Assembly: GCA_964459725.1 (NCBI GenBank)
Contig: CAYWNT010000006.1
Location: 4,569 to 68,568, forward strand
Origin: an uncultured Gammaproteobacteria bacterium
GTDB taxonomy: Bacteria; Patescibacteriota; Patescibacteriia; Patescibacteriales; UBA12075
Direction: 5' to 3'
DNA: 64,000 nt
Part shown: positions 3,992-50,171 of the stretch, one piece after another
How the letters are laid out: every line of letters begins with the position of its first letter
How positions within the stretch are numbered: position 1 is the stretch's first letter
Notes under the pieces: model-generated
Databases searched by the model: none
What the model was told of the DNA's origin: nothing
Seen by the model: only the letters and a program-made list of their open reading frames with translations
Made by a program: the position numbers and the translations under genes

Positions 3992-5308
3992 ATGTTAGAC
4001 ATTAAATACATCAGGGACAATGCCGAAAAAATTAAAGAAGCGGCAAAAAATAAAAATATAAACATTGATATTGATCAGTTGCTCGAAATTGATAGCAAGA
4101 GAAGAGAGGCTCAAACCAAGATCGATGAGCTTCGTGCTAAGCGAAATGAGCTAGCTCAGGCCGCCAAGGGAGGTAGGCCGACTGAAGAGCAAATTGCTGA
4201 AGGTAAGAAAGTAAAAGAAGAAATTTCAAATATTGAGGAAGGCTATAAAAAGATCGAAGAAGATTATTTGGCCTTAATGGTGAAAGTCCCAACTATTCCG
4301 TCAGATGATACCCCTGTGGGGAAAGATGAATCTGGAAACATTGAAGCTGAAAAATGGGGTGAGCCGACGAAATTTAACTTTACACCGAAAAGCCATATCG
4401 AAATTGCCAAAGATCTTGATTTGCTTGATTTTGAAAGGGGAGTGAAAGTAGCAGGTTATAGAGGGTATTACGTAAAAAATGAAGCCGCAAGTCTACAAAT
4501 GGCCCTGATGATGTATGCTCTTGAAAGATTAATCGCCAAAGGTTTTACTCCAATGATTCCTCCGACTTTGATACGTGAATTTGCGCTTTTTGGAAGTGGA
4601 TATTTCTCAGGCAAGCAGTTTGATTCAGATGTGGATGAGATTTATAAAATTGAAAACGTTAACAAGGATGCAGAAGGCAAAGCTGTGAAGGAGAATAAGT
4701 TTCTGGTAGGAACAGCAGAGCCATCACTTCTGGCTTATTATTCTGGTGAAGTTTTAGACGAAAGTCAGTTGCCTCTCAAATTATGTGGTTTCTCACCATG
4801 CTATAGGAGTGAGATTGGGAGTTATGGTAAGGACACCAAGGGTCTATACAGAGTACATGAGTTTATGAAAGTAGAGCAGGTGTGTATGACCAAAAACAAT
4901 ATCGAAGATTCTAATAAGATGCATTTAGAAATGGTCGAAATATCTAAAGAGCTTCATGAAGAGTTGAATATTCCTTACAGAGTGTTAAGTATTTGTACTG
5001 GGGACATGAGTGCCGGGAAATACAAAATGTTTGATCTCGAAGCTTGGATGCCTAGTAGAGAGGGGTATGGCGAGACTGGGTCTGCCTCTAATTTTGTTGA
5101 CTGGCAATCACGCCGACTAAATGTTAAATACAAGGATGGTGATGGGAGCAAAAATTTTGTTCATATGATTAATAATACGGCTATCCCATCTCCAAGATTT
5201 ATAATAGCGATATTGGAAAATTATCAGCAAGAAGATGGTAGCGTTGTGGTTCCTGAGCCACTAAGAAAATATATGCCAGGAAACATGGAGATTATTAGAA
5301 AAAAATAA
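3992..5308 (+). CDS. serS: Seryl-tRNA synthetase
   Basis: N-terminal long coiled-coil arm (MLDIKYIRDN...ELRAKRNELAQ) and a class II core (CYRSEIGSYGKDTKGLYRVHEF, TAIPSPRFIIAILENYQ). Confidence 0.93.
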   Translation: MLDIKYIRDNAEKIKEAAKNKNINIDIDQLLEIDSKRREAQTKIDELRAKRNELAQAAKGGRPTEEQIAEGKKVKEEISNIEEGYKKIEEDYLALMVKVPTIPSDDTPVGKDESGNIEAEKWGEPTKFNFTPKSHIEIAKDLDLLDFERGVKVAGYRGYYVKNEAASLQMALMMYALERLIAKGFTPMIPPTLIREFALFGSGYFSGKQFDSDVDEIYKIENVNKDAEGKAVKENKFLVGTAEPSLLAYYSGEVLDESQLPLKLCGFSPCYRSEIGSYGKDTKGLYRVHEFMKVEQVCMTKNNIEDSNKMHLEMVEISKELHEELNIPYRVLSICTGDMSAGKYKMFDLEAWMPSREGYGETGSASNFVDWQSRRLNVKYKDGDGSKNFVHMINNTAIPSPRFIIAILENYQQEDGSVVVPEPLRKYMPGNMEIIRKK

Positions 5309-19923: not shown

Positions 19924-21945
19924 ATGTTTGGTAAAAATAATTCAAAAAATATAAATTTTATCAAGGAAGTTGAAGAGGGGGCAAAGAAGGTTTATGATAA
20001 TTTACCATCTACAAAAAAGAGAAGAGGTAGAGAAATATTTGGCAAAGTTCTAAGGATCTTGTGGATAGGGATTGTAGGTATAATTTTATTGTCGCTTGTA
20101 TTTTTAGTGATAAATATAGTTAATATAAAAAACGTATATAATGAAATCAGATTAGGCAAGGAAAACATTGAGCAAGCGGTTTATTTTGCGAAAGTTCAAG
20201 ATTTTCCTACTGCCAAAACCTATGCTGATTTATCTTTTGATAATTTTGGTAAAGCTAGAGAGGTACTTGAAAAATACGAAGAAAATTTTTTAATATCCAG
20301 ACTTGGTTATATAAAGAAACAAGTATCAAATTTGGTGAATTTATCTTCGGCTGCAGAGATGCTTAGTGGTGCCATGGCCGAAGGTGTTCTGTTTGCTTCG
20401 ACCTTAAATGAGGCGCTCAGTGATAAGAAAAATTTTACCAAGCTAACCGATGAAGAAAAGAGCAAGATATTGGGAATTATTTATAATGGCTCTGATGAGC
20501 TCACCAAAATAAAAAATAATATCGACAAAGCAGTTGATGATTTAGGGCAAGTAAAATTTCCCCCCTTTTTGAAAATTGTTAGCACAAAAGTAGAAGGTCT
20601 GAGGGATAAGGTTGTGGAAGCACAGGACATGCTGGGTAAGGCTATCCCACTTTCTAAGATTTTACCAGAAGTGTTTGGATATCCTGATAAGTCGGCCTTT
20701 TTAGTTATTTTACAAAATAGTGACGAACTTAGACCCACAGGAGGATTTATTGGGACATACGGGATTGTTGAAATGGAAAATAGTGATGTGGCAAGACTTG
20801 ATACTCACGATATTTATCACATGGACATGCCTGTCAAAGACAAGATCAGTATTGAGCCACCTCTTCCTCTTAAAGAGTACCTAGGAGTTGATAAGTGGTT
20901 TATGCGTGATTCTAACTGGTCTCCGGACTGGCCCACATCAGCTAAAAAAATAGAAGAGTTTTACGAATTGGAAAATAATTTATTACCGCCACAGAATCAG
21001 ATTAATGATTTTTATGGAAAATTCGATGGTGTAATTGCTGTAAATCCGAGATTTATCACAGATTTAATAAAGTATATCGGCCCAATAGAAATAGAGGGCG
21101 TGAAATACAATGAGAAAAACTTTGTTGATTTACTCGAGTACAGAGTGGAGAAAGGGTATGTGAGCCTGGGTGTGCCAAAATGGCAGAGGAAAGAGGTGAT
21201 AGGCAAGATAGCAAAGGAGATAAAAGTGAGACTACTAGATCTTCCATTTGTTGAAATGTATAAAATAGTAAACGAAATAGACAAGAATTTACTCAGAAAA
21301 GACCTGATGGTTTATTTCAAGGATAATGAATTACAAAATTTGGCCCTTGAACAGGGCTGGGGCGGTAATATGATTAGTACGGAAGGAGATTATTTAATGG
21401 TTGTTGATTCAAATATGGCGAGCTTGAAAACTGATGCTGTAATCAAGAGAAGAATAAATCATGAGGTAGGAGAGGAAATTGATGGACTGTTTTCAAAGTT
21501 AGAAATTAGCTATATGCACAGCGGGTCTTTTGACTGGAAGACAACCAGATATAGGACATATACCAGAGTGTATGTTCCTGAGGGAAGTGAGCTTGTTCAA
21601 GTGGGAGGAGGCAATCCGGAGGAGGTAGAGGTTTATAATGAGTTTGGCAAAACTGTTTTCGCTGTATTTTTCACAGTTGAACCGGGCAAGATTGGCACTT
21701 TGACTTTTAGATATAAGCTGCCAGACAATATACTCAAGGACGATAGTTATTTTTTGTATCTGCAAAAACAGCCAGGCAGTGTTTATGATGGAGTGAATAT
21801 AAGCTTGAACTTTAATGAGGAAATAAAAAGATACACCCCAACAGGATTTTTTGCCAAGAAGGAGAAGGCTGGAAACGTTAAATGGGAAAACGATTTTGAA
21901 ACAGATCTTATTTACAAAGTAGATCTTGCTAATATTATTTATTAA
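19924..21945 (+). CDS. DUF4012 domain-containing membrane-anchored protein
   Basis: LVILQNSDELRPTGGFIGTYGIVEMENSDV core typical of DUF4012, with an N-terminal TM span. The track ORF opens at TTG 19855; ATG 19924 is preferred. Confidence 0.8.
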   Translation: MFGKNNSKNINFIKEVEEGAKKVYDNLPSTKKRRGREIFGKVLRILWIGIVGIILLSLVFLVINIVNIKNVYNEIRLGKENIEQAVYFAKVQDFPTAKTYADLSFDNFGKAREVLEKYEENFLISRLGYIKKQVSNLVNLSSAAEMLSGAMAEGVLFASTLNEALSDKKNFTKLTDEEKSKILGIIYNGSDELTKIKNNIDKAVDDLGQVKFPPFLKIVSTKVEGLRDKVVEAQDMLGKAIPLSKILPEVFGYPDKSAFLVILQNSDELRPTGGFIGTYGIVEMENSDVARLDTHDIYHMDMPVKDKISIEPPLPLKEYLGVDKWFMRDSNWSPDWPTSAKKIEEFYELENNLLPPQNQINDFYGKFDGVIAVNPRFITDLIKYIGPIEIEGVKYNEKNFVDLLEYRVEKGYVSLGVPKWQRKEVIGKIAKEIKVRLLDLPFVEMYKIVNEIDKNLLRKDLMVYFKDNELQNLALEQGWGGNMISTEGDYLMVVDSNMASLKTDAVIKRRINHEVGEEIDGLFSKLEISYMHSGSFDWKTTRYRTYTRVYVPEGSELVQVGGGNPEEVEVYNEFGKTVFAVFFTVEPGKIGTLTFRYKLPDNILKDDSYFLYLQKQPGSVYDGVNISLNFNEEIKRYTPTGFFAKKEKAGNVKWENDFETDLIYKVDLANIIY

Positions 21946-45425: not shown

Positions 45426-45431
45426 AACTTC

Positions 45432-45512
45432 GGCGGGTTTATCCACTGGGAGGTGGGCAGGCATTCCATAGCACATTCCATAGCACATTCTACCTGTGGC
45501 AGAATTGTGTTG
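45432..45512. repeat. GC-rich intergenic repeat, copy A
   Basis: ggcgggtttatccactgggaggtgggcaggcattccatagcacattccatagcacattctacctgtggcagaattgtgttg. Aligns with 49229-49297 with about 6 transitions/substitutions and a 12-nt internal duplication (cattccatagca x2). Confidence 0.85.
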
Positions 45513-45598
45513 TTAAAATTCTTTGCGCACTAATTTTCGCCTAATGGTGCTTATTTGATTACGTCAATAACATAAATAAATTATTTCAAATAAAAAAA

Positions 45599-45632: not shown

Positions 45633-45755
45633 AGTTTGGAGAAAAATTTTTCACCTTACAGAGGAGCGTCAGGTCGGCAAAAAAATTTCTTTTTCTCATA
45701 TTCCTCTCATAATATAAAACCTATAATATAATTACTTTAAAAGTAATTTTAACTT

Positions 45756-46427
45756 ATGCAAATTCTCATCATAGAAGACGAACAGCGTCTGGCGCAAAGT
45801 ATTCAAAAAGGACTAAAGGCGGAAAATTTTTCTGTAGATGTTGCTAATGACGGCGAACAAGGATTAAAAATGATGATCAATAAATACGATTTGATTATTC
45901 TTGATCTCATGCTGCCAAAAGTGAGTGGGTTGGAAATCTTAGAACATTTGCGAACAGAAAAAAACAAAATCCCAATATTAATCTTAACTGCCAAAGGCTC
46001 AACAGATGATAAGGTGAAAGGGCTTAATTTGGGGGCTGATGATTATTTAGCAAAGCCATTTGATTTCGAAGAGCTATTGGCGCGTGTTTACGCTCTTATA
46101 CGCCGTTCAACCAATAGTGATGTGAAATTAAAAATTGACAATTTGGAACTTAATCCACGCAAAAAAGAAGTCACCAGAGCCGGAAAAATAATAAAACTCT
46201 CCGGTACGGAATATAGATTATTGGAATACTTAGTGAGACATCCTCACCATGTCATGAGTGAAACAGATCTTTTGGAGCATGTTTGGGATCATAATTATGA
46301 TGGGCTTTCCAATATTGTTTCTGTGTATATTCGCTACCTTCGAAACAAGATAGATAAACCTTTTACCACAGAAAAACCACTCATTCATACTGTGCGCGGC
46401 TTAGGCTATAAAATTTGCGATAAATAA
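45756..46427 (+). CDS. OmpR-family response regulator (receiver plus winged-helix DNA-binding domain)
   Basis: ILIIEDE...DLIILDLMLPKVSGLEIL...ILILTAKG...GADDYLAKPF and the C-terminal LSGTEYRLLEYLV...TVRGLGYK. Confidence 0.92.
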   Translation: MQILIIEDEQRLAQSIQKGLKAENFSVDVANDGEQGLKMMINKYDLIILDLMLPKVSGLEILEHLRTEKNKIPILILTAKGSTDDKVKGLNLGADDYLAKPFDFEELLARVYALIRRSTNSDVKLKIDNLELNPRKKEVTRAGKIIKLSGTEYRLLEYLVRHPHHVMSETDLLEHVWDHNYDGLSNIVSVYIRYLRNKIDKPFTTEKPLIHTVRGLGYKICDK

Positions 46428-46436
46428 TAAACTCCT

Positions 46437-47687
46437 ATGAAATACACTACCAAAAAAAAATGGCAATTTACTTTTATTTATTTTTTTCCTGTTTTTATTA
46501 TTTTTTCCTGTTTCTCAATTTTTATCCATTATTCTTATTCAGAAAAAATATACGAAATTGATGACACTATCTCAGAAATGGCTTTTGGCACTAGTGAGTA
46601 TAGAGAATTTAATGAATATAAAGAATACAAAGAAGCACCCAATACAATTATTGCTGAGCAGGACTGGAACACTCTTTCTATGGAGGAAATTGATAAAAAA
46701 CTTATTGAAAATGGATTGGAACCTATTGGCAACTCAAAGGACCCTTTTTATTATCTAACTCCAAAAGAAATCAAAGAAAAATTAAACAAAGAAGCTATTT
46801 TTTGGGGCTCAAATCCTGATGGAGGTGTTGTCTACACAGAAGTAGGGCATGATCTGCCTTATATTTCCTTGGAGCAAATTGAAGAAGTTCAAGACACAAT
46901 TAGTCAATCATCACTTATGACTATTATTGTTACTTTGTTTGGAGTTACTTTGGCGTTTGCGTTTTTAGCTTATTATTTTGCCGGCAAAGCCATTAAACCA
47001 CTCCAAGATTCCATTGAAAAGCAAAAACAATTTGTCTCTGATTCTTCCCATGAAATAAAAACACCCTTGGCGCTGATAAAATCAGAGGCTGAAGTTTTAC
47101 TGCGAGATAAAAATTCGTCAATTAATGAATATCAAAGTTTTGCCAAAAATACAGTAGAAGATGTCAATCGTTTGGACACTTTGGCTGATAGTCTTTTATG
47201 GCTGGCTCAATTGGATCAGAAGAAAAAAGATTTTGCTTTGGAAAAAATAAATCTCAGTGCGCTGATTCAAAAAATAGCCAACTCCTTCGGGCAAGTAGCG
47301 CTTAAAAAGAAAATTACTATTAATGCAGACATTGAAAAGGATATTTTTGCTTCCGCAAATAGAGATGCTACTTATCAAGTATTGAATATCATTCTTGATA
47401 ATGCTCTAAAATTTAGTCCGGAAAAAAGTAAAATTGACATTTACATCAAACAAGAGCTCCAATCAATTATAGTGAATATCAAGGATTGTGGTATTGGTAT
47501 TTCCAAAAAAGATTTAAGTCATATCTTTGATCGTTTTTACCGTGCCTCAGAAGATCGTCATGAAAAAGGTTATGGTTTGGGATTAGCCATTGCCAAAGAA
47601 GCTATGCTTGCTCAAGGCGGCAATATCAAAATCAAGAGCGCATTAAAAAGAGGAACGATCGTAGAATTGCGGTTTAAAAAAGGGTAA
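46437..47687 (+). CDS. Sensor histidine kinase (two TM spans, ~125-aa extracytoplasmic domain, HisKA, HATPase_c)
   Basis: H-box FVSDSSHEIKTPLALI, N-box NIILDNALKFSP, G-boxes DCGIGI and GYGLGLAIAKE. Confidence 0.9.
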   Translation: MKYTTKKKWQFTFIYFFPVFIIFSCFSIFIHYSYSEKIYEIDDTISEMAFGTSEYREFNEYKEYKEAPNTIIAEQDWNTLSMEEIDKKLIENGLEPIGNSKDPFYYLTPKEIKEKLNKEAIFWGSNPDGGVVYTEVGHDLPYISLEQIEEVQDTISQSSLMTIIVTLFGVTLAFAFLAYYFAGKAIKPLQDSIEKQKQFVSDSSHEIKTPLALIKSEAEVLLRDKNSSINEYQSFAKNTVEDVNRLDTLADSLLWLAQLDQKKKDFALEKINLSALIQKIANSFGQVALKKKITINADIEKDIFASANRDATYQVLNIILDNALKFSPEKSKIDIYIKQELQSIIVNIKDCGIGISKKDLSHIFDRFYRASEDRHEKGYGLGLAIAKEAMLAQGGNIKIKSALKRGTIVELRFKKG

Positions 47688-47714
47688 TTTTTTATCAAAA
47701 TTCAAAAAAGCAAA

Positions 47715-47746
47715 AACTCTCATCTTCTACTCATGGGAGTTTTTTT
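47715..47746 (+). terminator. Rho-independent terminator after the kinase gene
   Basis: aactctcat (47715-47723) pairs with atgggagtt (47733-47741), followed by a T-run to 47746. Confidence 0.7.
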
Positions 47747-47955
47747 ATAATAATGGTATTCATTAATTAATCAAATCAAGCCATGGAGAGGTGACAAAAA
47801 ATAATCATAAATTCTCACCTTGCTCTCATGCAGTATTTATTACAATGAATATATTCAATGATAAAAAAGATTAAAACAACCAGCGCGCAAACTTTTTCCT
47901 TTTTCATCAGAGAAACAAACTATTTTGATTATTTTGTAAAATTAGTGAAAGCTCT

Positions 47956-48024
47956 ACCAAGGCTATTGGTCCAAAATAATTTATCATTACATTTTACAAG
48001 AAATCAAAAACTTTTTAATTTAAT
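47956..48024 (+). promoter_or_regulatory. Conserved upstream element, copy 1 (before the 98-aa gene)
   Basis: accaaggctattggtccaaaataatttatcattacattttacaagaaatcaaaaacttt... matches 48401-48468 with 2 substitutions and 1 single-nt indel over about 58 nt. Confidence 0.7.
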
Positions 48025-48048
48025 TTAATTTATTATGAAAACAACAAA

Positions 48049-48345
48049 ATGAAAACTACAGCCATAATAACTGTCATATCATTTTTGATACTAACAGCAA
48101 TTATCGTATTAATCAGATCTGTTTCAACAGATAATTACAACCCAGAAAAACCAGGCTATAAAGAGCTGTCTGAGTATCAAAAAGGAAAGACTAACGAATA
48201 TAAAGAGATGCCTGGGGATCTAAAAGGAAAAACTAACGAATATAAAAAGATGCCTGGAAATCCAGCAGGAAAAACTACCGAATATAAAGAGCTGTCTGGG
48301 AATGATGAATATACAGAAAAAGGAGGCATTACTAATTACCGATAA
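48049..48345 (+). CDS. Membrane-anchored/secreted repeat protein (98 aa) with three 14-aa GKTNEYKEMPG-type repeats
   Basis: N-terminal signal-anchor MKTTAIITVISFLILTAIIVLI. Three tandem 42-nt repeats at 48181-48306. The N- and C-termini are homologous to the 202-aa neighbour. Confidence 0.7.
   Translation: MKTTAIITVISFLILTAIIVLIRSVSTDNYNPEKPGYKELSEYQKGKTNEYKEMPGDLKGKTNEYKKMPGNPAGKTTEYKELSGNDEYTEKGGITNYR
48181..48306 (+). repeat. 3 x 42-nt in-frame tandem repeat
   Basis: KGKTNEYKEMPGDL / KGKTNEYKKMPGNP / AGKTTEYKELSGND, with near-identical nucleotide units. Confidence 0.85.
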
Positions 48346-48400
48346 AAGATTGAAAAGCAATTGATAAAAAGCGCGAAGAGCTATATGGGTATAAAAATAT

Positions 48401-48468
48401 ACCAAGGCTATTAGTCCAAAATAATTTATCAGTACATTTTCAAGAAATCAAAAACTTTATAATTTAAA
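48401..48468 (+). promoter_or_regulatory. Conserved upstream element, copy 2 (before the 202-aa gene)
   Basis: accaaggctattagtccaaaataatttatcagtacattttcaagaaatcaaaaacttt... See copy 1. Confidence 0.7.
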
Positions 48469-48479
48469 TTACAATATTT

Positions 48480-49088
48480 ATGAAAACTACAAAAAAAACT
48501 ACAGCTATAATAGCTATCACATCACTTTTAGTGCTAACATCACTTATTGTATTATCCAGATCTGTTTTGGCAGATAATTACAAACCCGAAAAACAAGATA
48601 TAGTATTTTCTGAAAACTATTCCGAAGAAGACTTTGATACAGGATTTTATTTTTCCCCTTCTGAAGATATAACCGAGGGTATTATCTCAGAAGAAGATTG
48701 GAACACTCTTTCCATGAAACAAATTGACGAAAAATTAAAAGCTGCAGGAATAGAAACAGAACTTGTTGATCATCGCGATCCGCTTTACAACCTAACTCCG
48801 GCCGAGATGGATAAATTGACAGAAGCTCAGTGGGAGGAAATTGATAAGAAGTTGATTGAAATTTATGGAGAAGATTTTTTTTACGAAGATTTTGAATGCG
48901 AAGATGAAGATTGTGAAATTGAATTTTATAAATCAGCAGGAGAGGTAAGCAGCACTAATTTTTATTCTCATCCAACTCAATACAGCACAACTGACGGTAA
49001 AAATTACGTTGAATATACTGGTGACGAAGAAATAACCGGAGTTAACGAATATACAGAAAAAGGAGTCAATACTTATTATCGAAAATAG
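48480..49088 (+). CDS. Membrane-anchored acidic protein (202 aa), paralogous to the kinase sensor domain
   Basis: Signal-anchor MKTTKKTTAIIAITSLLVLTSLIVL. IISEEDWNTLSMKQIDEKLKAAGIETELVDHRDPLYNLTPAEMDKL matches kinase residues ~71-116. A second WEEIDKKLIE copy is present. The tail NEYTEKGVNTYYRK matches the 98-aa protein. Confidence 0.75.
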   Translation: MKTTKKTTAIIAITSLLVLTSLIVLSRSVLADNYKPEKQDIVFSENYSEEDFDTGFYFSPSEDITEGIISEEDWNTLSMKQIDEKLKAAGIETELVDHRDPLYNLTPAEMDKLTEAQWEEIDKKLIEIYGEDFFYEDFECEDEDCEIEFYKSAGEVSSTNFYSHPTQYSTTDGKNYVEYTGDEEITGVNEYTEKGVNTYYRK

Positions 49089-49113
49089 ATTAACCAACCG
49101 TGCTGATTTAAAA

Positions 49114-49141
49114 AACCTCTCACTTTGTGTGGGAGGTTTTT
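49114..49141 (+). terminator. Rho-independent terminator after the 202-aa gene
   Basis: aacctctcac (49114-49123) pairs with gtgggaggtt (49129-49138), followed by a T-run. Confidence 0.75.
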
Positions 49142-49173
49142 GACATAGATACATTCTCTATAAAATGGAATTT

Positions 49174-49297
49174 CCTCCCAAGGCGGACAGGCACTCTCCA
49201 TGGCGACGGGCAGGCCCTCCTGCTGCGCGGCGGGTTTATCCACCGGGAGGCGGGCAGGCATTCCATAGTATATTCTACCTGCGGCAGAAGTGTGTTG
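49174..49297. repeat. GC-rich intergenic repeat, copy B (longest copy)
   Basis: cctcccaaggcggacaggcactctccatggcgacgggcaggccctcctgctgcgcggcgggtttatccaccgggaggcgggcaggcattccatagtatattctacctgcggcagaagtgtgttg. The 3' part equals copy A and the middle part equals the core at 3517-3544. It looks like about four degenerate 22-24-nt units starting GCGG(G)CAGGC. Confidence 0.85.
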
Positions 49298-49307
49298 ATA
49301 AATAAAA

Positions 49308-49331
49308 AAGGCCATCGAATTCAATGGCCTT
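49308..49331 (-). terminator. Rho-independent terminator for the minus-strand small-gene unit
   Basis: aaggccat pairs with atggcctt. The A-run on the plus side gives a U-tract on the minus strand. Confidence 0.7.
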
Positions 49332-49361
49332 GTACTTAAAATATTACGAAGGTAGTTTTAT

Positions 49362-49605: not shown

Positions 49606-49806
49606 CTAGTCGAGCGGTGTTTCACCGATTGAAACTGCTTCGTCGAATTCAACTTCGTCTCGCATCTGATCAACGAGTTTCTGAGAAATTTTAGCAGCTA
49701 CAGACATTTTTACCTTGTCTCTCTTTGTAATTGTTACTTTATGCTTTAGTAGAAATTCAATTACTTTGTCATAATCATCATGGCAGCAAGTGTCAATATA
49801 TCGCAT
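49606..49806 (-). CDS. Small protein (66 aa), SD-led; paralogue of 49965..50171
   Basis: acaaggaggataaatATG. MRYIDTCCHDDYDKVIEFLLKHKVTITKRDKVKMSVAAKISQKL... Confidence 0.65.
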   Translation of the reverse strand: MRYIDTCCHDDYDKVIEFLLKHKVTITKRDKVKMSVAAKISQKLVDQMRDEVEFDEAVSIGETPLD

Positions 49807-49913
49807 ATTTATCCTCCTTGTTGTGCGCCTTATCAATAATTTTGGTTTATTATTCTTTTTAGCATAAGATTTGAAAAAAATCAATACATTTGTACGGATT
49901 CACTATAAAAAAA

Positions 49914-49964: not shown

Positions 49965-50171
49965 TTATTGTTGCCAGAGCGGAGCTTTTCCAATGGTAAA
50001 GTTGTGCATGAGCTTAATTTCGTTTTCCATCCGGTTAGTAAGGCTCTTAGGCACCTTCGCGGCTATTGTCATCCTTAGCTTGTCTCTTGCGGCAATTGTT
50101 ACATTGTTTTTTTGCAAAAAACTGATTACTTTTCCAAAATCTCCATCTGAGCAAGTGTCAAAGTACGTCAT
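49965..50171 (-). CDS. Small protein (68 aa), SD-led; paralogue of 49606..49806
   Basis: atatggagggtaatcATG. MTYFDTCSDGDFGKVISFLQKNNVTIAARDKLRMTIAAKVPKSL... Confidence 0.65.
   Translation of the reverse strand: MTYFDTCSDGDFGKVISFLQKNNVTIAARDKLRMTIAAKVPKSLTNRMENEIKLMHNFTIGKAPLWQQ

Follow-up and report, generated by a model that had tools for sequence, protein, structure and literature searches.

Why should a sensor kinase and a protein encoded immediately behind it be built from the same domain, and what does this arrangement tell us about the circuit to which they belong? The question is raised by positions 45756-49088 of a stretch of 64,000 nt from an uncultured bacterium (assembly GCA_964459725.1, contig CAYWNT010000006.1; this whole stretch is referred to as the window), where four same-strand open reading frames (ORFs) encode a response regulator (RR), a histidine kinase (HK) and two small proteins, P98 and P202. 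We found that a helical module in the ectodomain of HK is homologous to a module in P202, that this pairing of kinase and secreted module protein recurs in other uncultivated bacteria, and that a predicted binding site of the regulator precedes both the RR-HK operon and the secreted genes. We read the locus as a self-contained cassette whose module recognizes an extracellular or envelope ligand common to the sensor and to the secreted proteins it induces, and we put the chances of this reading at about even. The genes and the kinase module are as follows.

45756-46427, plus strand: RR, a response regulator of the OmpR/PhoB family, 223 aa
46437-47687, plus strand: HK, a sensor histidine kinase, 416 aa, consisting of a first transmembrane segment (TM1), the ectodomain, a second transmembrane segment (TM2), HisKA and HATPase_c
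46638-46790, plus strand: the kinase module PNTIIAEQDWNTLSMEEIDKKLIENGLEPIGNSKDPFYYLTPKEIKEKLN, HK residues ~68-118, recovered by the module profile as a domain hit of 1.3e-26
48049-48345, plus strand: P98, consisting of a signal peptide, DNYNPEK, three repeats and the tail DEYTEKGGITNYR
48480-49088, plus strand: P202, 202 aa, consisting of a signal peptide (residues 1-31), the module (residues 63-133), an acidic Cys/Tyr-rich region and the tail NEYTEKGVNTYYRK

A helical module shared by the kinase and its probably secreted neighbor

Residues 71-112 of HK and residues 68-110 of P202 share 53% identity, and the similarity is significant after composition correction (E = 1e-11, composition-adjusted BLASTP). 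Low complexity is not its cause, as the stretch defines a profile family and has a confidently predicted fold. The original prediction had regarded the kinase sensor domain as paralogous to both small proteins; this holds for P202 and not for P98, which contains no copy of the kinase module. The kinase module is truncated relative to the full P202 module (nt 48666-48878) and is without its long last helix, which is missing from most of the other kinase modules as well. A second WEEIDKKLIE copy that had been noticed in P202 is present, and it corresponds to this conserved last helix of the same module instead of a second module.

We built a module profile from eight units and searched 1.84 billion (1.84e9) protein representatives exhaustively, which gave 43 proteins, 39 of them below 1e-10. 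Eleven of the 43 are HisKA kinases with one or two modules between TM1 and TM2, and the closest relatives of the window HK module are the modules in four other kinases (P0010, P0038, P0034, and P0027). Most of the other members are signal-peptide proteins with one to three tandem modules, often with very acidic tails; the relatives of P202 include two proteins with three tandem copies behind signal peptides. In P0015, the modules are fused to a Peptidase_Mx1-like HExxH domain. Three members possess a cytoplasmic N-terminus, one transmembrane segment, and a module-bearing ectodomain. P0013 (448 aa), with a cytoplasmic N-terminus, one transmembrane segment and two modules, is encoded directly downstream of an extracytoplasmic function (ECF) sigma factor (L015, 936-3008), and P0031 and P0043 have the same architecture as P0013. 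Pfam recognizes no anti-sigma domain in P0013; judged from its gene context, the module seems to serve sigma/anti-sigma signaling as well. The module is restricted to a small set of uncultivated low-GC bacteria, and a search for related loci with the core module alignment returned one genome locus and one metagenome locus.

The AlphaFold2 (AF2) model of P202 residues 63-133, computed from 55 aligned units, consists of four helices with a predicted local distance difference test score (pLDDT) of 95.4 and a predicted template modeling score (pTM) of 0.80. A long ordered loop bears the conserved G..PIGD..DP.Y motif. On this model, the module is a real domain of ~55-70 aa with four helices and a confidently predicted fold. 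In the AF2 model of HK residues 1-210, the overall pLDDT is 70.8, that of the module region is 80-88, and residues 119-141 are disordered; the module appears as a small helical unit between long membrane-proximal helices that prolong TM1 (residues 10-35) and TM2 (residues 155-174, both by hydropathy), and TM2 continues almost directly into the DHp helix.

In agreement with the earlier statement that nothing characterized matches these proteins, no Pfam or NCBIfam model covers the HK ectodomain, P202, or their relatives. The ectodomain matches none of the PAS/PDC/Cache, 4HB_MCP, CHASE, NIT, PBP-like, or PepSY domains in Pfam and NCBIfam, a PDB sequence-profile search gave no credible match, and a Foldseek comparison of the module fold with PDB and with the predicted viral structures of BFVD gave nothing below E = 4.

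Two side observations concern the wider family. The three-module protein P0008 (L016, 4180-5190, GC 57%) is without a signal peptide and has metabolic genes but no two-component genes as neighbors, which makes its context an outlier in the family; P0011 is similar to P0008. A second recurring helical repeat (..I..L..ID.ED.FF..LD..YEL.....Y), without a Pfam match, follows the module in the secreted members P0018, P0021, P0023, P0025, P0026, and P0015.

Conservation of the arrangement

A synteny survey covered about ten distinct loci, which are given below with the number of modules of each protein in parentheses.

Window (= L002-L004): RR, HK (1), P98, P202 (1)
L006: HK (1), P0018 (1)
L007/L008: RR, HK (2), two genes, and then a signal-peptide module protein
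L010: HK (1), P0006 (2)
L012: RR, HK (1), P0004 (3), and an SLH protein
L013: RR, HK (1), P0009 (2)
L014: RR, HK (1), P0005 (3)
L017: RR, HK (2), and then a secreted HExxH protein without module, homologous to the C-terminus of P0015
L011: HK (1); the contig ends too early, uninformative
L001: RR, HK (0), P0002 (3)

A module-bearing kinase is followed by a secreted module protein on the same strand in seven of the eight informative loci, the exception being L017, and the cassette is kept in at least eight other distinct genomes, all of uncultivated low-GC bacteria. The co-occurrence of kinase and ectodomain paralogue, on which the original prediction depended, is therefore real. In L017 (GCA_964523635.1, 6350-7731), the kinase has two modules and the box described below precedes the secreted HExxH gene. 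The L001 kinase, in which no module is detectable, nests among the module-bearing kinases, where P0035 is its sister (56% identity between the cytoplasmic parts); this nested position indicates secondary loss or decay of the module.

The arrangement also crosses a difference in genetic code. In L005, L006, and L017, TGA stands in frame within the RR gene opposite conserved glycines (examples are LTAK-G and L-G-ADDYL); by this alignment, these three loci use genetic code 25, the window and most other loci using the standard code. Reading TGA as glycine is a typical trait of the Gracilibacteria/Absconditabacteria, a part of the Candidate Phyla Radiation, and we take the recoded loci to come from relatives of this type. 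Bacteria of this kind possess very few regulators and are presumably host-attached.

Some neighbors of the cassette recur. SLH-domain proteins flank it in L011 (92-871) and L012 (5847-6596), two of about ten loci, the window having none; in L014 (4101-4673) and L017 (469-1194), the flanking proteins carry GDYXXLXY domains. Both are possible envelope-related neighbors of the system.

The regulator-kinase pair and its predicted operator

The signaling chassis is classical. The RR matches Response_reg (2.8e-30) and Trans_reg_C (4.4e-25) in Pfam, and HK matches HisKA (1.5e-10) and HATPase_c (3e-23), with the H-box SHEIKTP present and no HAMP or PAS domain detected by Pfam; only 9 nt separate the RR stop codon from the HK start codon. 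The pair thus shows the features of a classical two-component system, a HisKA/HATPase_c kinase with an adjoining receiver/Trans_reg_C regulator, and both proteins are ordinary members of the HisKA and OmpR/PhoB classes. The RR remains under every NCBIfam equivalog cut-off, with CopR/SilR, RppA, and PhoB as its top matches: it scores 203.7 bits against the PhoB equivalog TIGR02154, whose cut-off is 296.2, and the higher scores of CopR/SilR and RppA are sub-cut-off as well. RR and HK are also distantly similar to the WalK/CpxA/BaeS classes, again missing all cut-offs.

Comparison of upstream regions revealed a box with the consensus TTCTCAT-N4-YTCTCAT, which was scored by the exact pattern TCTCAY-N5-TCTCAT. 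It consists of two 7-bp direct repeats with a 4-bp spacer and an 11-bp period, and lies over the -35 region. The window contains three such boxes next to the genes of the cassette.

45694-45727, plus strand: Box 1 TCTCATATTCCTCTCAT, exact match, with the box at 45694-45710, an 11-nt gap, and TATAAT at 45722-45727
47718-47751, plus strand: Box 2a TCTCATCTTCTACTCAT, one mismatch, an 11-nt gap, and TATAAT at 47746-47751, overlapping a hairpin just after the HK stop codon
47813-47846, plus strand: Box 2b TCTCACCTTGCTCTCAT, exact match, an 11-nt gap, and TACAAT at 47841-47846

In 157 kb of non-redundant sequence, the exact box occurs at 15 sites against 0.06 expected and at most 1 in 300 shuffles, and all 15 sites are on the gene strand, either upstream of an RR gene or between a kinase and a secreted gene. 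The former position is occupied in the window (45694), L001, L007, L012, and L017; the latter in the window (47813), L001, L006 (twice), L007/L008, where the box precedes the module gene, L010, L012, L013, L014, and L017. Tandem boxes are also seen beyond the window, in L006 (3017, 3116) and L017 (6339, 6350). The rest of the 64-kb window contains no further box except one-mismatch copies, at 47718 (Box 2a) and at 21215, the latter inside a gene. The gap between box and hexamer is exactly 11 nt at the three window boxes and mostly 9-11 nt at the other loci, with a maximum of 20 nt. A scan for sigma-70 promoters was uninformative (17 sites against 16.3 expected).

Replacement of the -35 element by such a box is a usual feature of activator-dependent promoters. 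Wherever the box is present, the RRs are orthologous, with 46-80% identity and a nearly invariant recognition helix LSNIVSVYIRYLRNKID. The box would hence be the operator of the RR, through which the regulator would activate its own operon and the secreted gene or genes; Box 1 is the predicted RR-dependent promoter of the RR-HK operon (autoregulation), and Box 2b that of P98-P202. Regulon membership is a prediction throughout, the box preceding P98-P202 and homologous genes in eight loci. Seven-bp direct repeats with a 4-bp spacer in place of the -35 element are the architecture of the PHO box and of the OmpR/PhoB family (PMC4415409, PMC4832192). The functional link between the kinase and its neighbors that had been proposed from the window is consequently strengthened, given that the arrangement recurs and that a box of the response-regulator type stands before both the RR-HK operon and the secreted gene.

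A separate (A/G)GCGCGCA(A/T)AAA motif was observed near the boxes or leaders of secreted genes in the window (~47880-47892), L005 (~385-400), L012 (~4160-4175), and L013 (~2375-2390). The loci concerned are AT-rich, and the L013 copy is located within the loop of a small hairpin; the motif may be a second regulatory element.

Age of the relationship between the kinase and P202

Between the HK and P202 modules, the proportion of synonymous differences (pS) is saturated at 0.8 and that of nonsynonymous differences (pN) is 0.21. The kinase modules cluster together, and that of the window is nearer to the modules of other kinases than to P202. Because of the saturated pS, the low pN and this grouping, the relationship is regarded as ancient and under purifying selection. 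When the 50 secreted modules are ranked by similarity to a kinase module, the module of the cognate neighbor takes a rank between 5th and 41st. By these comparisons, the relationship between HK and P202 reflects neither a recent capture nor pair-specific co-evolution. P0039 is the earliest-branching kinase and its module is still full-length, including the last helix, which fits an origin of the kinase module from the secreted type. HK and P202 also contain a 29-nt stretch of 86% identity; a recent gene conversion as its cause was rejected on the pS of 0.8 and the grouping of the HK module with other HK modules.

P202, P98, and their transcription unit

P202 begins with a Sec-type signal peptide that ends in an AxA-type site, VLA|DNY, and its relatives show ASA|, VYA|, and AFA| at this position (judged by eye). 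The original prediction had taken the two neighbors for membrane-anchored, surface-tethered proteins; given these signal-peptidase sites in P202 and its relatives, anchoring is unlikely, and P202 and its homologues look secreted.

That P98 and P202 resemble each other at both ends, as had been stated, is borne out by 67% identity over 33 aa in the N-terminal signal region (E = 1e-12) and 58% identity over 19 aa in the C-terminal tail (E = 5e-4). Between these regions, at 48157-48303, the 14-aa unit (G)KTNEYKEMPG (42 nt) occurs in P98 three times in tandem. The leader is duplicated too.

47955-48048, plus strand: leader segment before P98, duplicated before P202 at 48400-48479 with ~93% identity (~85 nt)
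49106-49146, plus strand: inverted repeat after P202, a hairpin with a T-run, AAAAAACCTCTCAC / GTGGGAGGTTTTT, the probable terminator of the P98-P202 unit

A search of 5.8 billion protein clusters with P98 found only P98 itself, and no P98-like gene exists at any other locus examined. The ancestral ATG of P98 at 48036, which aligns with the start codon of P202, is out of frame through a 2-nt insertion (48036-48051), and this insertion is also the origin of the in-frame ATG now found at 48049 and restores the MKTT N-terminus. Over 52 codons, the pN/pS between P98 and P202 is ~0.64, a value that does not distinguish a functional gene from a decaying one. Taken together, the alignments identify P98 as an orphan derivative of a P202 duplicate, in which the middle part with the module has been lost and replaced by the 42-nt tandem repeats. 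Since no terminator-like element is found between P98 and P202 and a hairpin with a T-run follows P202, the two genes are probably one transcription unit, driven from the boxes at 47718 and 47813.

A further resemblance links P98 to the kinase through a short stretch next to the module.

46590-46637, plus strand: Tyr/Glu/Lys-rich stretch TSEYREFNEYKEYKEA, HK residues 52-67, just N-terminal of the module, where the AF2 model has a helix at residues 62-71

Three EY[KR]E motifs occur in TSEYREFNEYKEYKEA against two in ~16,900 other long-ORF residues of the window. The wider pattern EY[KRTQ][EK] occurs six times in the 17,484 long-ORF residues, with three copies in HK and one in P202, and P98 adds five. 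The echo of the P98 repeats in HK that had been noticed earlier is thus borne out by the near confinement of the motif to HK, P202, and P98, and not by alignment, which is weak (E = 0.04, BLASTP); within these data, it appears real but lineage-specific.

What the module may recognize

In the mechanism that we propose, the module would be an extracytoplasmic recognition domain for an extracellular or cell-envelope ligand, which the kinase would detect through its own module. The phosphorylated RR would bind head-to-tail to the TTCTCAT-N4-YTCTCAT direct repeat over the -35 region and switch on the RR-HK operon and the secreted-protein gene or genes. The secreted proteins would then bind, capture, or act on the ligand of the kinase by means of the same module; in the relatives, the outputs would be acidic proteins with tandem modules, a fusion of modules to a metallopeptidase, or a peptidase without modules. 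Such an output would compete with the sensor for the ligand and, as a possible decoy, would provide built-in negative feedback. This shared-ligand model is favored since the module occurs both in sensors (the kinases, and P0013 beside the ECF sigma factor) and in effectors (the tandem arrays and the peptidase fusion). Such a distribution is known for recognition modules that sensors have in common with the proteins under their control. From it we infer ligand binding by the module, with one ligand common to sensor and output.

Several points weigh against this reading. In L001, the orthologous kinase has no detectable module, yet the box and the three-module secreted gene are retained; therefore, the circuit can run without a module in the sensor. 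The most strongly conserved residues of the module look like helix caps and core positions with no obvious binding-site signature, and the Foldseek searches of PDB and BFVD and the PDB profile search offered no structural analogue that would hint at a function. Promoter and operator function is a prediction from comparative footprinting. L005, in which a module protein is followed by an RR, was discounted as synteny support: its RR is non-orthologous (33-37% identity, with a different recognition helix), and no box is present.

The secreted module might instead bind the kinase module directly, as a feedback inhibitor of the CpxP kind, a co-receptor, or a self or quorum cue, which we regard as rather improbable. 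Sensor and output have the same domain and are always adjacent, the same box before the output gene and the RR-HK operon closes the loop, and outputs with two or three modules could cross-link kinase dimers. Such homotypic binding sits badly with the finding that kinase modules are no closer to the modules of their own neighbors than to unrelated ones, with the L001 kinase, which keeps the box and a three-module gene while having no module itself, and with the two-module kinase of L017, whose predicted target is a module-less protein. Moreover, the module also occurs in the anti-sigma-like protein and in the peptidase fusion, with no partner module gene shown. A stricter form, in which the kinase module binds the module of its own induced secreted protein to make a protein-based self-sensing loop, serving as a confinement or quorum cue or as soluble-decoy feedback, strikes us as improbable. 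No bacterial two-component system is known to us in which an extracellular protein induced by the system is paralogous to the sensor domain and acts directly on it.

If the module bound the wall or S-layer polymer of its own cell, it would localize the kinase loop and the secreted proteins there, and the kinase would be a sensor of envelope integrity with structural outputs. The SLH-domain proteins adjoining the cassette in L011 and L012 lend this modest support, wall-associated proteins typically show tandem repeats and acidic tails, and a distant similarity to the WalK/CpxA/BaeS classes, below all cut-offs, is seen in RR and HK. On the other side, the module resembles none of the wall-binding folds, SLH, LysM, and PG_binding included, and SLH neighbors are found at just two of about ten loci, the window not included. 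We consider envelope anchoring quite unlikely as a separate explanation; it amounts to a special case of the shared-ligand model, with the cell's own envelope as the ligand.

Alternatively, short linear ligands of the module could be provided by the (T/N)EY(K/T)E motifs in P98, in the P202 tail, and in the juxtamembrane region of HK, with P98 (five copies) as a multivalent competitor or agonist. In its favor, the motif hardly occurs in the window outside these three proteins, its stretch in HK immediately adjoins the module, and P98 and P202 have a common promoter region. The idea is nonetheless very improbable: P98 has no homologue anywhere and no counterpart at the other loci, the conserved cassette manages without it, the motif alignment is weak (E = 0.04), and P98, with its frame-shifted ancestral start, internal deletion, and pN/pS of ~0.64, looks like a decaying or neo-functionalizing duplicate. 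Chance or compositional similarity, or an accident of recent gene conversion, which the K/E-rich proteins, the AT-rich genome, and the 29-nt stretch might suggest, is scarcely credible and was rejected in view of the composition-adjusted E value of 1e-11, the 43-member profile family, the confident fold (pLDDT 95.4), the pS of 0.8, and an arrangement kept in at least eight distinct genomes, including some with a different genetic code.

Comparison with known systems

Sensors that display a module homologous to those of secreted effectors have precedents, and these differ from the cassette. BlaR1 and MecR1 possess a sensor domain homologous to penicillin-binding and beta-lactamase proteins. There, as with eukaryotic soluble decoy receptors, sensor and soluble effector recognize the same ligand by homologous domains and induced copies can damp the signal, as in the shared-ligand model; signaling chemistry, fold, and ligand all differ, and the analogy is one of logic only. 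CpxP, a regulon-encoded periplasmic inhibitor of its own sensor CpxA (CpxA/CpxR), and MgrB, which acts on PhoQ, resemble our case in that the predicted target gene encodes an extracytoplasmic protein able in principle to feed back on the sensor. Neither is homologous to the sensor domain on which it acts, whereas here output and sensor have a common domain, and no match to a CpxP/LTXXQ family was obtained in Pfam or NCBIfam. Compared with Agr/Com peptide quorum sensing, the outputs here have Sec-type signal peptides and folded domains, the kinase is a two-TM HisKA protein and not a polytopic HPK10 one, and the cassette contains no exporter or AgrB-like gene.

The best-studied case of such a shared recognition module comes from polysaccharide sensing. 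In Clostridium thermocellum, the RsgI anti-sigma factors of the SigI system display outside the cell the same kind of binding module (CBM/PA14) as the cellulosomal proteins that they regulate (PMC6852018, PMC10328401). The likeness is that the module of the HK ectodomain is homologous to a module in the secreted protein under its predicted control, and that the module is found in an anti-sigma-like protein beside an ECF sigma factor (L015) as well. However, the present system employs a HisKA kinase and an OmpR-type regulator instead of a proteolyzed anti-sigma factor with RsgI_N and a cognate SigI, and its module is an all-helical domain of ~60 aa, unrelated to CBM or PA14.

The box resembles that of PhoR/PhoB in having two 7-bp direct repeats with an 11-bp period, TTCTCAT against the CTGTCAT of E. 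coli (PMC4415409), and in lying ~10-11 bp upstream of the -10 element in place of the -35 element; the regulators belong to the same winged-helix family. PhoP of M. tuberculosis likewise recognizes 7-bp repeats with a 4-bp spacer (PMC4832192). In contrast, the RR does not reach the cut-off of the PhoB equivalog, the large ectodomain of the kinase is not accompanied by a PAS domain, pst or phoU is not found among the called genes of any locus examined, and nothing ties the cassette to phosphate. The cassette is not PhoRB, and the resemblance to the PHO box is one of architecture only. What is new is the domain itself, its confinement to a few uncultivated low-GC bacteria, and a compact, conserved cassette that places this domain in both a two-component sensor and its predicted target.

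Flanking repeats and neighborhood

Two GC-rich direct repeats bracket the cassette.

45431-45517, plus strand: left repeat, ~90 nt
49228-49302, plus strand: right repeat, with a longer GC-rich tract at 49150-49305

They are ~90% identical and are the only two copies in the window by repeat and pattern search; their GC content clearly exceeds the background value of 36%, and they contain CGGGCAGGC sub-repeats. Folding of 49147-49345 on the minus strand gave z = -3.4, and no credible Rfam match was obtained. L004, a public contig from the same genome, begins inside the repeat, suggesting a multi-copy element. The repeat could be a mobile-element scar, a REP-like repeat, or a small RNA. As the flanking genes differ between loci and the repeats bracket the genes, the cassette behaves as a portable unit. 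That it would carry a self-sensing receptor/decoy pair as a mobile unit in ultra-small, probably host-attached bacteria is, in our judgment, doubtful.

Beyond the right repeat, two adjoining paralogous ORFs of 92 and 68 aa are located at 49606-49884 and 49965-50171, both on the minus strand; they share 45% identity over 65 aa (E = 3e-22) and belong to no Pfam family.

Implications

The known sensor domains of bacteria are few, and the module adds an uncharacterized extracytoplasmic one to them; its presence in both sensor and effectors extends the logic of cellulosome regulation to classical two-component systems. Sensor, regulator, predicted operator, promoter geometry, and predicted target gene all lie within 3.8 kb, a nearly complete predicted circuit that could be transplanted to a heterologous host, which is rare for unculturable organisms. 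A conserved unit that senses outside and secretes a binder of the same kind is a good candidate for how presumably host-attached bacteria with very few regulators read or manipulate their surroundings.

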